A DNA stretch of 53,879 nucleotides, counting the filler, from Stramenopiles sp. TOSAG23-3 (lineage: Eukaryota), in the NCBI GenBank assembly GCA_900128585.1. It is 4 parts of 4 records of this genome, joined end to end, with 100 filler letters (N's around TTAATTAATTAA, not from the genome) between each part and the next. Parts side by side here need not be neighbours in the genome. Positions count along the whole stretch, not along the records: positions 24,855 to 49,608 come from LT642299.1; 3 more parts are not named here. One strand, written 5' to 3'. Within the stretch, counting starts at the first letter, position 1, and each line of letters begins with the position of its first letter. The notes under the pieces were generated by a model. That model saw only the letters and a list, made by a program, of their open reading frames with translations, did no database searches and had not been told where the DNA came from. Shown piece after piece: positions 29,201-30,727 of the stretch. The position numbers and the translations under genes are program-made.

Positions 29201-30727
29201 GAAGAAGTAAAATGGTACCATTTATTCCCAGATGAAAATTACCACCCGTATGATCCTAGTAAGGAAACTATTGTGGTTCATTTAAAGGAATGGTATGACA
29301 TGGTGTCGGTAAAAGAATGCTTGAACCAAGTCTATATCGAGTATACGGATGGTCCGCACGCGATTATCCATATACAGCTACCGACTGACGAAGATGTGGG
29401 GATTTACTACGAAAATTATATTCGTAAGCAAACTGTACGTGGAATCGAGCATGCGGAAGAGACAATGAAGGTTAAATTGCCCGGTAAAAGCAAATACCAT
29501 GTTGAAACTTCGCTGTCCAATTTAAAAAAGCTCATCGAATTGGAAGGTGTTGATTTCTCCACCATCAACACGAACGATATCCATATGGTCAAGAATATGT
29601 ATGGTATTGAAGCTGCAAGAGCTTCTCTAATACGTGAAATACGAAAGATATTATCTTACTATGGAATATACGTTAATGTTCGACATATCACACTGGCTGT
29701 CGATTGGATAACTTGGATTGGTGCATTGACCCCACTGACCCGTCATGGTATACGACTGGTAGACACATCGCCTTTAAAACGATCTACCTTTGAAGAAGTG
29801 GTAGAGGTCTTCAATCAGGCTGCATGTGCAAAGGAAATAGACTTACTACAGGGCATTTCCGAATGTATTATAACTGGAACACCGCCTAATTTGGGAACGA
29901 ATGTCGTGGGGACTGTAGTGGACAAGGGTATGATAGAACAGTACAAAGTACCATTCCCAGTAGAGGAATTCAAGGAAATGGTAGCGGAGGACGATTTTGA
30001 CGAAATATATGGGAGTTTGAATGAAGTAGATCCATGGGCAGATGAACGTTCAGCTTGGGAAAAGCCACCAATGCTGCAACCCACACAACCATTGACGTTT
30101 AGTATGCAACCATTACAGTTTTCTCAGCCGACGTTTCAACAATTCCCTTCACAAAATGTTATGTTTCCTCAGGCAACACAAAATGTTATGTTTCCTCAGG
30201 CAACACAAAATGTTATGTTTCCTCAGGCTCAGGCAACACAAAATGTTATGTTTCCTCAGGCACAAACACAAAATGTTATGTTTCCTCAGGCACAAACACA
30301 AAATGTTATGTTTCCTCAGGCACAATTAACGATTAAGCGACCAGTCAGTCCATGTAGTCCGGCGTATTCGCCACATTCACCGACAAGTCCAGCGTATTCA
30401 CCGACAAGTCCAGCGTATTCACCTACGAGTCCAGCATACTCACCACAAACGCCTACAAGTCCGGCATACTCGCCTACAAGTCCGGTGTATTCGCCTACAA
30501 GCCCGGTGTATTCACCTACGAGTCCAGCATACTCCCCACATACACCGACAAGTCCGGCATATTCGCCTACGAGTCCAGCATATTCGCCTACGAGCCCGGC
30601 GTACGACCCTATGGACAATGTATCTGACCCATTTGAACCTCAGAGTCCGGGTTACGATCCTTTTGATCCCGTTTCGGATCCCGTTTTGGCTTCTCCTCAA
30701 AAAAAGCGGCGAAAGACTTACTGTTAA
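26209..30727 (+). CDS. RPB1: Viral DNA-directed RNA polymerase largest subunit (RPB1-like); exons 26209-27412 and 27471-30727, ~1486 aa; with CTD heptads and NLS
   Basis: KEGRIRGNLMGKRVDF, FNRQPSLHKMS, YNAD^[55 protein letters not shown]; splicing restores the frame exactly. Confidence 0.95.
27413..27470 (+). other. Spliceosomal GT-AG intron (58 nt, phase 1) inside the Phe codon of NADFDGD
   Basis: GAC T|GTAAGT...TTAAC...TTTTCATACAG|TC GAT GGT GAT; contains an in-frame stop at 27454-27456. Confidence 0.93.
30149..30325 (+). repeat. Coding tandem repeat, 6 x (T/S)QNVMFPQA(Q), in the RPB1 linker
   Basis: Near-identical 27-33 nt units CACAAAATGTTATGTTTCCTCAGGC. Confidence 0.95.
30347..30610 (+). 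repeat. Pol II CTD-like repeats: 10 Tyr-units, YSPTSP(A/V) heptads and three YSPx(S/T)PTSPA decamers
   Basis: Translated sequence; synonymous codons vary between units. Confidence 0.95.

Follow-up and report, generated by a model that had tools for sequence, protein, structure and literature searches.

The largest subunit's C-terminal domain (CTD) is the hallmark that ties RNA polymerase II (Pol II) to capping, splicing, and 3'-end formation, and, to our knowledge, the multisubunit RNA polymerases that viruses encode are usually described as having none. Cellular Pol II is not known to carry a nuclear localisation signal (NLS) itself; the adaptor Iwr1 mediates its import. Where a protein does carry a classical monopartite NLS, this follows the pattern K-K/R-X-K/R and depends on importin-alpha.

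Among the viruses that must be kept in mind here are the mirusviruses. According to the available part of PMC12768974, their core functions include heliorhodopsins, Snf2 ATPases, histones, TBP, and Snf7; the order Demutovirales keeps RNAP, Topo II, and RNR; and RNAP-encoding mirusviruses, which keep RNAP, DNA polymerase, and RNR, are proposed to replicate partly or wholly in the cytoplasm. In the available portions of their main texts, supplements aside, neither PMC10132985 nor PMC12768974 mentions heptads or nuclear localisation; the term "CTD" does not occur in that of PMC12768974, where "C-terminal" appears once, about terminase, and "C-terminal" does not occur in that of PMC10132985. Our literature search found no paper on CTD heptads in the RPB1 of giant viruses or mirusviruses, though supplements may hold annotations.

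Here, we describe an RPB1 gene in a stretch of 53,879 nucleotides (the window) in which an earlier note had read a viral RNA polymerase with a host-style CTD, a Q-rich repeat linker, and a terminal NLS. The polymerase is that of a marine large DNA virus; its clade stands separate from both eukaryotic Pol II and the RPB1 of other giant viruses, and its tail is a conserved modular appendage made up of an acidic Trp motif, a repeat linker, a Pol II-type CTD, a YDP segment, and a basic end.

The window should not be read as one continuous piece of genome. A contig-joining spacer (44 N, TTAATTAATTAA, 44 N) at 24755-24854 forms the left end of the RPB1 contig, and the same spacer recurs at 49609-49708 and 51745-51844; because spacers flank it on both sides (24755-24854 and 49609-49708), the RPB1 contig is taken to span 24855-49608. 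The left 25 kb was therefore ruled out as genomic context for RPB1, and the genes found there for AMP deaminase and GPDH, like the EF-hand and INCENP-like ones, do not neighbour it.

The gene encodes the largest RNA polymerase subunit (RPB1, or RNApolA) on the plus strand in two exons, with a computed spliced product of 1486 aa. Exon 1 (26209-27412, plus strand; 401 codons and 1 base, read in the sequence as ending ...PYNAD) covers Rpb1 domains 1 and 2 (Pfam PF04997, E 1e-49; PF00623, E 1.8e-45). Exon 2 (27471-30727, plus strand) consists of 2 bases, 1084 codons, and a TAA stop at 30725-30727, and it matches Pfam Rpb1 domains 3, 4, and 5; domain 6 (PF04992) stays below the cut-off at 20.3 bits versus 23, and domain 7 (PF04990) gave no Pfam match in the viral RPB1. 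Convergent with it lies a BT1/MFS transporter gene (30609-31883, minus strand; Pfam BT1, E 6.9e-47), the last 119 nt of which overlap the 3' end of RPB1. This gene pair is kept in G001, L108, L002, L111, and L003, with an overlap of 119-203 nt across six loci.

One might suspect that such a gene is simply the RPB1 of a protist, or that a virus has recently captured the 3' end of a host RPB1, the CTD being the host's. The record also holds a contig with cellular-type genes (AMP deaminase, INCENP-like, GPDH), and the heptads are canonical and of the Ala7 type found in stramenopiles. That contig, however, is joined to the one carrying RPB1 by an artificial spacer only. The core is 31-38% identical to its cellular RPB1 matches, which carry the domain 7 that it lacks, and it falls outside the eukaryotic group in a tree of 64 rows; the tail architecture is found in relatives down to 41% identity, and the flanks are syntenic with a viral record. 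We therefore regard a cellular or captured origin as highly improbable and have ruled out a cellular RPB1. The tree, whose rows include no labelled mirusvirus, splits off by a single branch each the clade of the window (24 rows), the 15 rows of eukaryotic Pol II, and the 25 rows of RPB1 from other giant viruses, with support of 100, 92, and 99. Identity to the window RPB1 is also low (28-34%) at 77 other giant-virus loci in IMG/VR; a single-protein scan of IMG/VR found no relative, and the sole informative match in the INPHARED phage collection was a Mollivirus-type record, at 28%.

The viral record that matches the flanks, G001 from IMG/VR (134 kb), is syntenic with the window over 26-49 kb and 11 ORFs. 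It encodes a phage-type terminase large subunit (phrog_2, E 1.7e-14; Pfam Terminase_6N, E 1.4e-4), two heliorhodopsins (98 and 35 bits), Topo II, the RNR large subunit, and an Snf2 helicase, at an estimated completeness of only 27%. Because of this synteny with a record bearing a terminase and heliorhodopsins, the virus is probably an RNAP-encoding mirusvirus, the assignment being made by way of the syntenic relative. The tree, the synteny, and the terminase together bear out the earlier note in calling the polymerase viral rather than the cellular RPB1, the outcome that it had named as its refutation. An Imitervirales-type giant virus was dropped as a candidate in view of the IMG/VR scan, the way the tails compare, the position in the tree, and G001's terminase.

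Some caution is needed with the marker searches made in G001 and G002 for the capping enzyme, FCP1/NIF phosphatase, Snf7, and NCLDV capsid, as two of these four matched no control genome. Snf7 was not found in either record (G001 being about 27% complete), and the NCLDV capsid (PF04451) search gave no match in the two records or in any control genome, hence it is uninformative. No HK97-type capsid or portal gene was identified in G001, again at 27% completeness. A 1128-aa neighbour was considered as a capsid protein and rejected for want of capsid-fold support: its model has a pLDDT of 64, Foldseek returned no match at E <= 0.001, and its best match by VIA-align is to MCM-type ATPases (Z 6.7).

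The tail of RPB1 comprises 275 residues, of which 18% are Pro, 12% Ser, and 10% Gln, and all of its parts lie on the plus strand. It starts at 29903-30028, after the last core motif (ECIITGTPPNLGTN, 29861-29902), and continues with the acidic Trp motif DPWADERSAWE (30029-30061) and a degenerate P/Q/L/F linker (KPPMLQPTQPLTFSMQPLQFSQPTFQQFP, 30062-30148). The repeats reported earlier for 30149-30727 are present as described. Six (S/T)QNVMFPQA units (30149-30325), the first beginning with S and the other five with T, form a low-complexity linker array of variable copy number; the units are set apart by 1-3 residues, which makes the periods 27, 27, 33, 30, and 30 nt, and Tandem Repeats Finder reports a period of 30 with 6.0 copies and 93% matches. 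A spacer, LTIKRP, and a degenerate heptad without Tyr, VSPCSPA, follow at 30326-30364.

The CTD array itself (30365-30601) has ten Tyr units. In the product of exon 2, which is 1084 residues long, it fills positions 965-1043, and this places it 155 residues past the last core motif. Seven units are heptads (YSPTSPA five times and YSPTSPV twice), and three, at units 1, 4, and 8, are decamers of the form YSP[H/Q][S/T]PTSPA, namely YSPHSPTSPA, YSPQTPTSPA, and YSPHTPTSPA. The array shows a 93-nt higher-order period. Pfam PF05001, the Rpb1 C-terminal repeat, matches it at E 1.1e-13; the score of 51 bits, where the cut-off is 20.3, puts the likeness beyond chance. Behind it come an acidic Asp-Pro segment with YDP motifs (YDPMDNVSDPFEPQSPGYDPFDPVSDPVLASPQ, 30602-30700) and the terminal motif KKRRKTYC (30701-30724), an NLS-like basic run followed by a conserved T-Y-C. 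The basic run had previously been placed, as PQKKRRK, at the extreme C-terminus; the run is there, but TYC follows before the stop, so that KKRRK ends 3 residues from the C-terminus of the low-complexity tail. Among ORFs of at least 80 aa in the window, G001, L002, and L003, a KKRRKTYC-type motif is unique to RPB1. Basic clusters also occur near the C-termini of Topo II and of a 1131-aa protein, both in G001.

The two arrays differ at the level of DNA. The six 24-nt Q cores contain a single base difference in all (mean pairwise identity 98.6%), whereas the seven heptads share 82% DNA identity, and even the five identical YSPTSPA peptides, at 87%, are spelled in 4 DNA versions. This upholds the earlier observation that the CTD codons have diverged synonymously and that the Q units are near-identical DNA. 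Across the ten Tyr units, positions 1-6 vary synonymously only, and the sole amino-acid change is Ala/Val at position 7. Between strains at 98% identity, both arrays differ in copy number: there are 6 Q units in the window and 5 in L108 and P0001, and ten Tyr units in the window and nine in X3, L108, and P0001, which have one heptad fewer. In L110, an 86% relative, the unit structure of the Q array differs from that of the window. The QNVMFPQA array is thus best read as young and recently expanded, as had been claimed from its near-identical DNA and as the 5 units of the 98% strain and the different units of the 86% relative attest, and both arrays evidently turn over by unit duplication and loss.

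Copy-number differences between close strains and near-identical repeat DNA are what one would expect of neutral slippage, and the repeats could in principle be slippage products without function. Yet dN/dS between the window and L110 is 0.085 for the CTD (66 aligned codons) and 0.065 for the catalytic core, and the variation among units is synonymous in positions 1-6. Such estimates are usable against L110 only, dS against relatives of about 60% identity being saturated. Codon usage is also telling. In the window, the Ser2 codon is always TCN and the Ser5 codon always AGY, and the CTDs of L002 and L003 have the opposite assignment (AGY at Ser2 and TCN at Ser5); because the codon families are swapped, the arrays must have been re-founded with the peptide kept. 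The architecture persists across the clade in spite of unit turnover and these swapped families, and we find a purely neutral origin barely credible. The CTD peptide is instead under purifying selection of about the strength acting on the catalytic core, as estimated from these ratios; selection on the heptads at the peptide level had been proposed, and it holds.

A further explanation is that the tail acts mainly by condensate formation, its repeats and Tyr heptads concentrating the polymerase by phase separation with no phospho-code. It has in its favour 275 low-complexity residues with regularly spaced Phe and Tyr, and linker units that differ between relatives, often in an FG-like manner, as would fit selection on composition and not on sequence. 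Composition alone could account for the Q array, whose dN/dS against L110 is 0.244 (38 codons), but not so readily for the 0.085 of the CTD, in which exact residues are kept (Tyr at position 1, S-P at 2-3 and 5-6). For the degenerate linker ahead of the Q array, dN/dS against L110 is 0.074 (78 codons). As the main role of the tail we consider condensate formation quite unlikely, and it can coexist with the explanation that we prefer, in which the CTD couples the polymerase to host processing.

To see how widely the tail is distributed, one can turn to the clade set of 64 related proteins, one of which is a truncated fragment. At least one YSPxSP is present in 56/64, at least three in 34/64, at least ten SP in 55/64, and SPAY in 56/64. 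A basic cluster lies within the last 22 residues of 54/64 and is followed by T in 42/54, then by Y/F in 48/54, and then by C/F/L in 44/54; eight of the ten proteins without such a cluster have a shorter basic run before T-Y/F. The resulting unit, a basic run with T-[YF]-[CFL], usually sits 3-4 residues from the C-terminus. In 47/64, a Y[D/H/Q..]P motif precedes the basic end by 2-30 residues, and a motif of the DPW..D/E/Q..W-D/E type is found in 28/64. The linker repeat unit differs in every relative, with many FG-like examples such as PQFGVPN, FGMPQPT, and PGFGAP. The tail architecture, terminal motif included, extends to relatives as distant as 41% identity. It is clade-wide: apart from the truncated fragment, the 64 proteins combine a linker of low complexity with an SP-rich CTD and a basic end of the form K/R-T-[YF]-[CFL].

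Outside the clade, the picture is uniform. Three of the best 80 IMG/VR loci belong to the clade, and all 77 others are giant-virus loci with acidic tails of 5-85 residues, 76 with zero SP and 1 with one SP. The earlier statement that most viral RNA polymerases lack a CTD thus agrees with the viral sets examined, in which 77/77 other giant-virus loci have no such tail. The CTD is indeed a real feature of a viral polymerase, but it is a property of the whole clade and no peculiarity of one virus; likewise, the "novel Q-rich linker" is novel in its lineage-specific unit, while a low-complexity linker with other units is found in every relative. For the terminal NLS the basic run fits, but the conserved unit is longer, adds T-[YF]-[CFL], and overlaps an opposite-strand gene. 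We recommend some care in interpreting its conservation, as SKSFAAFFEE of BT1 is the antisense of QKKRRKT of RPB1, and since the C-terminus of BT1, itself semi-conserved, is encoded on the strand opposite the motif, part of the constraint could be dual coding.

Alanine at position 7 had been given as typical of stramenopile CTDs, and in the two named CTDs examined it is (29/30 heptads in Pythium and 26/27 in Undaria). As a hint of a stramenopile host it is weak, however, as SPAY occurs in 56/64 clade proteins and Ala7 is the commonest form in three green-algal CTDs.

The gene is interrupted at a telling place. A 58-nt GT-AG element in phase 1 (27413-27470, plus strand; GTAAGT, a polypyrimidine stretch, CTTACTCAAAC, and ACAG) splits the Phe codon in the catalytic motif NADFDGDEMN, and its removal restores both motif and frame. 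L108, the 98% strain, lacks it and reads GAC TTC GAT precisely where the spliced ends were predicted to join; it is also missing from a contig of DNA run X3. The identical site is occupied in L109 (100%) and L110 (86%), with 57/58 aligned bases identical. On these features the element is a canonical spliceosomal-type GT-AG intron. We found no introner-like copies elsewhere in the window.

RNA libraries from three studies, one of them oligo-dT primed, contain contigs identical to the RPB1 gene, for example X15 (29517-30039), X16 (29809-30179), and X20 (29809-29959); none of the RNA contigs spans 27413-27470. These contigs point to expression, or else to DNA carried over into the RNA libraries, which could also produce them. 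Short, high-depth RNA contigs at 30383-30427 were rejected as RPB1 transcripts; they have 2-3 mismatches and extend into unlike sequence, and so they are attributed to the CTDs of other organisms.

What does such a tail do? We infer CTD function, the NLS role, and host identity only. A selected tail with an import-like end suggests a viral enzyme that plugs into host nuclear RNA machinery, and the explanation that we find on balance probable, if not strongly so, is that a selected Pol II-type CTD and an import signal together couple the viral polymerase to host nuclear processing. The basic end would be a built-in nuclear import signal and, by acting as one, would bring the viral polymerase, or at least its RPB1 subunit, into the host nucleus. 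There, the heptads may be phosphorylated at Ser5 and Ser2 by the CTD kinases of the host, and the tail would draw the host's factors for capping, splicing, and 3'-end formation to viral transcripts. Introns of spliceosomal type appear to be present in some viral genes, RPB1 included, which would thus need nuclear processing. The floppy repeat linker could serve as a spacer or tether, possibly also as a condensate-promoting segment. The fuller proposal, that RNAP-encoding mirusviruses run their own polymerase in the nucleus of the host, as an additional "Pol II" of viral make, by means of an import signal and a genuine CTD, is put forward tentatively, and we hold it to be somewhat doubtful. A plain NLS does not require the conserved T-[YF]-[CFL] that follows the basic run.

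The same tail could also work in a cytoplasmic viral factory, where the CTD would recruit virus-encoded or relocalised capping and processing enzymes and the basic end would serve virion packaging, DNA binding, or an acidic partner. The available part of PMC12768974 infers at least partly cytoplasmic replication for viruses that keep RNAP, DNA polymerase, and RNR; G001 keeps Topo II and RNR; and the conserved T-[YF]-[CFL] suggests a ligand more specific than importin. Against this, the RPB1 intron is kept at 86% protein identity, and because the gene carries a conserved intron of spliceosomal type, at least the RPB1 mRNA would need the nucleus. A weaker objection is that searches of G001, which is 27% complete, and of G002 turned up neither the capping enzyme (PF01331) nor a phosphatase of the FCP1 type (PF03031). 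We consider a cytoplasmic factory rather unlikely, and return to the nuclear coupling of polymerase and host processing as the preferred explanation.

Its bearing is wider than one locus. A whole clade of abundant marine viruses appears to keep a true, selected CTD and a nuclear-import-like end on its own polymerase. This offers a molecular handle on the recent question of where RNAP-encoding mirusviruses transcribe and replicate, and it is relevant to how often CTD-type docking tails arise or persist outside cellular Pol II. Should the polymerase prove to be a nuclear extra "Pol II", the proposal of essentially cytoplasmic RNAP-encoding mirusviruses would have to be revised, and no polymerase encoded by a virus would have been known to use the CTD code before it.

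Four known systems are useful for comparison. The RPB1 of Nucleocytoviricota (vaccinia Rpo147-type enzymes) is likewise part of a viral multisubunit polymerase, with a reduced domain 6/7 region and a gene split in many records, but its tails are short and acidic, SP motifs are absent (one SP in 1/77), and it forms a separate group in the tree. The RNApolA of Mirusviricota (Gaia et al. 2023, PMC10132985; PMC12768974), as described in the available parts of these papers, is a hallmark gene of a marine, RNAP-encoding lineage of large DNA viruses, and the polymerase, though related to that of Nucleocytoviricota, is distinct from it; further likenesses are the terminase, heliorhodopsins, Topo II, Snf2 ATPases, and occasional spliceosomal introns, with membership proposed here through a syntenic relative and not a labelled reference. 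The classical monopartite NLS is matched by KKRRK, exposed at the end of a disordered tail, but the conserved viral unit is longer, as it joins the basic run to T-[YF]-[CFL], a terminal K/R-T-[YF]-[CFL] motif that the two cellular RPB1 tails compared do not have.

The closest counterpart remains the eukaryotic Pol II CTD (PF05001, consensus YSPTSPS). As in Pol II, the viral heptads are in tandem and close the largest subunit behind a disordered linker, at its C-terminus, and they carry Ala at position 7, as do the stramenopile CTDs examined and some green-algal ones. Unlike the Pol II CTD, the viral one is borne by a polymerase that a virus encodes and that falls outside the group of eukaryotic Pol II, has ten units versus the 20-54 heptads of 25 cellular CTDs, includes three decamers with an extra (H/Q)(S/T)P, and is preceded by a tandem-repeat linker.

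The window is a chain of contigs linked by an artificial spacer (44 N + TTAATTAATTAA + 44 N) at 24755-24854, 49609-49708, and 51745-51844; gene order across these spacers is therefore meaningless, and the contig carrying RPB1, the gene for the largest RNA polymerase subunit, is 24855-49608. This contig shows synteny across 11 ORFs with the IMG/VR viral record G001 (133,808 bases), which encodes a terminase large subunit (6037-7878; phrog_2, E 1.7e-14; phrog_7579, E 4e-11; Pfam Terminase_6N, E 1.4e-4), two heliorhodopsins (126563-127630 and 105426-106325), Topo II, the RNR large subunit, and Snf2 helicases. 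The same record holds a 3,988-aa RCC1-repeat protein (44897-56866). The combination of a phage/herpes-type terminase with a multisubunit RNAP on a eukaryote-type viral contig marks the Mirusviricota. PMC12768974 presents heliorhodopsins as a core mirusvirus function and an order, Demutovirales, that keeps RNAP, Topo II, and RNR. The RPB1 contig is, by way of the syntenic record, a probable mirusvirus; the assignment stays at probable because an HK97-type capsid gene was not identified and the comparison included no labelled mirusvirus reference.

Among the best 120 protein matches to RPB1, the first 64 or so are unnamed metagenomic proteins at 41-98% identity, followed by cellular RPB1 at 31-38%. 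Only three of the best 80 IMG/VR loci belong to the clade, that is, the viral RPB1 group that includes the window, the other 77 being core-only matches at 28-34% identity. A quick LG+G4 search with SH-aLRT as its only support gave a 64-row tree from 23 clade proteins plus the window, 15 cellular matches, and 25 viral loci drawn from those 77. One branch sets off the 24 clade rows (support 100), another the 15 rows of eukaryotic Pol II (92), and a third the 25 remaining viral rows (99). The earlier note had called this a viral, non-cellular polymerase, and the separate clade, the distance from cellular RPB1, and the absence of Rpb1 domain 7 from the window protein (Pfam) bear it out; on these comparisons, the protein is neither cellular nor of the typical giant-virus type.

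RPB1 lies on the + strand in two exons (26209-27412 and 27471-30727), with a predicted spliced product of 1486 aa. Between them is a 58-nt GTAAGT...ACAG intron (27413-27470, +), which interrupts the catalytic NADFDGDEMN motif within its Phe codon. Comparison among relatives indicates that this intron is real, because L108, a metagenomic strain at 98% identity, has an uninterrupted GAC TTC GAT, exactly the predicted spliced junction, a DNA contig from sequencing run X3 (depth 22.5) is likewise intron-less, and the loci L109 (100% identical) and L110 (86% protein identity) keep an intron at the identical site. Its presence or absence varies among strains that are 98-100% identical (L108 and L109 vs the window). 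Between the window and L110, 57/58 aligned intron bases are identical, with two one-base indels, despite a core dS of 0.84 and exon 1 third positions that are only 72.8% identical, and the intron looks constrained or recently exchanged. Distant relatives have recurrent introns within or adjoining the same motif, and four separate 90% clusters contain N-terminal fragments reading ...PYNADCK alongside intron-less full-length members. In the clade locus L003, a 57-nt GTAAGT..TACTAAC..TAG intron (2350-2406) sits 5 nt farther downstream than that of the window, its TACTAAC resembling a branch-point box. Across the relatives (L003; proteins P0128-P0132 and P0139-P0185), three neighbouring intron positions fall in one catalytic motif: ahead of the Asp codon, within the Phe codon, and after Phe-Asp.

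RNA libraries from three studies, including one primed with oligo-dT, contain contigs identical to the RPB1 gene, though DNA can occur in such libraries. Examples cover 26410-26578 and 29517-30039 (run X15), 27900-28133 and 29809-30179 (X16), and 29809-29959 (X20); no contig spans the intron. Across 11 studies, 20 listed runs contain all or part of the stretch, and most of them bear a marine or seawater metagenome label.

The 3' end of RPB1 (30149-30727, +), read from the sequence, encodes six QNVMFPQA units (the Q array; 30149-30325, +), a spacer whose VSPCSPA unit has no Tyr, ten Tyr units forming the CTD (30365-30601, +; units 1, 4, and 8 are decamers and the other seven are YSPTSP[A/V] heptads), a YDP-rich acidic segment, and KKRRKTYC, after which comes a TAA stop. 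According to Tandem Repeats Finder, the Q array has a period of 30, 6.0 copies, and 93% matches, and the CTD has periods of 21 nt and 93 nt; the tail matches Pfam PF05001 (E 1.1e-13, 51 bits; cut-off 20.3). The repeats and basic end described in the earlier note are thus present, but PQKKRRK is not the extreme C-terminus, as TYC comes after it. Its codon argument, that the Q units are near-identical DNA and the CTD is synonymously diverged, also held: the six Q cores of 24 nt show one base difference overall, whereas the heptads have a DNA identity of 82% (87% when only the five identical YSPTSPA peptides are compared), with every difference synonymous save Ala/Val at position 7.

Selection on the tail was assessed as dN/dS between the window and L110 (Nei-Gojobori), the figures being approximate since the repeat alignment is ambiguous: 0.065 in the core (808 aligned codons), 0.074 in the first linker (78), 0.244 in the Q array (38), and 0.085 in the spacer plus CTD (66). 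Strains at 98% identity differ in copy number (Q units 6 vs 5, Tyr units 10 vs 9). The Ser codon families at heptad positions 2/5 are fixed within each array; in the window, Ser2 is TCN and Ser5 AGY throughout, and in L002 and L003 the order is AGY/TCN. Unit-by-unit descent would not easily account for this swap; repeated re-founding of the arrays, with selection keeping the same peptide, fits it.

Ala at position 7 had been offered as a hint of a stramenopile host. It is indeed typical of both named stramenopile CTDs examined (Pythium, 29/30 heptads; Undaria, 26/27), but the argument is weak because it is also the commonest residue 7 in the green algae Volvox, Edaphochlamys, and Coccomyxa and because SPAY is clade-wide among the viruses. 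The separate contig 1-24754, which ends in a (GAA)n run, carries cellular-type genes with no match in G001: AMP deaminase (3728-6007), an INCENP-like gene (14562-15077, -), GPDH (18740-19774), and an EF-hand protein (20311-23376, -). The best named matches of AMP deaminase at query coverage of at least 85% are mostly stramenopiles (46-53% identity; e.g. Saprolegnia, Achlya, Aphanomyces, and Schizochytrium), which hints at most faintly that the record contains a stramenopile-like cell together with the RPB1 virus.

The RPB1 contig itself encodes a clade-specific 1128-aa protein (34074-37460, -; 31 homologues at 49-88% identity) that matches neither Pfam nor PHROG entries and has an invariant P-loop-like block (..YTGE.ATSKS..), a basic cluster near the C-terminus, and only weak fold matches (MCM-type ATPases, Z 6.7; winged-helix domains, Z about 6). 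Small proteins that form a multi-copy family (25429-26187, 41637-42254, 42290-42865, 44210-44743, and 49121-49390), starting MK.C.KCNQSKALTEF and ending ..IIYNR.W.G..W, had no Pfam match in the three copies scanned; one copy lies immediately upstream of RPB1 in the window, L108, L109, and L110.

Sequence comparison thus establishes that the virus has a polymerase subunit whose Pol II-type CTD is under selection and whose basic end is conserved, and that the subunit's own gene needs splicing. The mechanism proposed is that the basic C-terminal end would direct nuclear import of the viral enzyme, that host CTD kinases would mark its heptads, and that viral transcripts would thereby gain host capping, splicing, and 3'-end factors. 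The KKRRK end, which has the classical NLS pattern, the RPB1 intron, and the C-terminal basic clusters of other G001 proteins (Topo II and a 1131-aa protein) fit such a nuclear model. Against it, PMC12768974 proposes that such viruses replicate wholly or partly in the cytoplasm, any nuclear phase being an early one. The conserved T-[YF]-[CFL] part of the terminal motif should also be counted among the caveats. The last 119 nt of RPB1 (30609-30727) overlap a convergent BT1 transporter gene, with BT1 SKSFAAFFEE antisense to RPB1 QKKRRKT, and since an overlap of 119-203 nt is conserved in all six loci (window, L108, L002, L111, L003, and G001), part of the motif's conservation may come from dual coding. 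The convergent RPB1-BT1 pair is syntenic across the clade.

How widely the tail is shared was counted in 64 clade proteins (the window plus the database relatives P0001-P0066, minus cellular P0057 and P0063 and the fragment P0060). At least one YSPxSP occurs in 56/64, at least three in 34, and at least five in 15, the window having the most with eight; 55 have at least 10 SP, 56 have SPAY, and 54 carry a basic cluster within the last 22 residues. This cluster is followed by T in 42/54, then Y/F in 48/54, and then C/F/L in 44/54. The 10 proteins failing the strict basic-cluster rule comprise eight with a shorter basic run before T-Y/F, one that is truncated, and one ending PKKSRS. Among ORFs of at least 80 aa, the terminal motif is found only on RPB1 in the window (60), G001 (202), L002 (24), and L003 (7). 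The low-complexity repeat between core and CTD differs by lineage (e.g. PFGQPPMLQ, PMMPQ, FGMPQPT, and PGFPGAPV; TQNVMFPQAQ in the window). By these counts, the tail is a clade-level character.

The literature searched yielded no account of CTD heptads on the RPB1 of a giant virus or mirusvirus. By term search, the main texts of PMC10132985 and PMC12768974 mention neither heptads nor nuclear localization, that of PMC12768974 also lacks 'CTD', and that of PMC10132985 lacks 'C-terminal'. What would be new is that a virus-encoded polymerase carries a true CTD and that a whole clade shares it; in contrast, the 77 other viral RPB1 loci have tails of 5-85 residues, with acidic printed ends and either zero (76 loci) or one (1 locus) SP.
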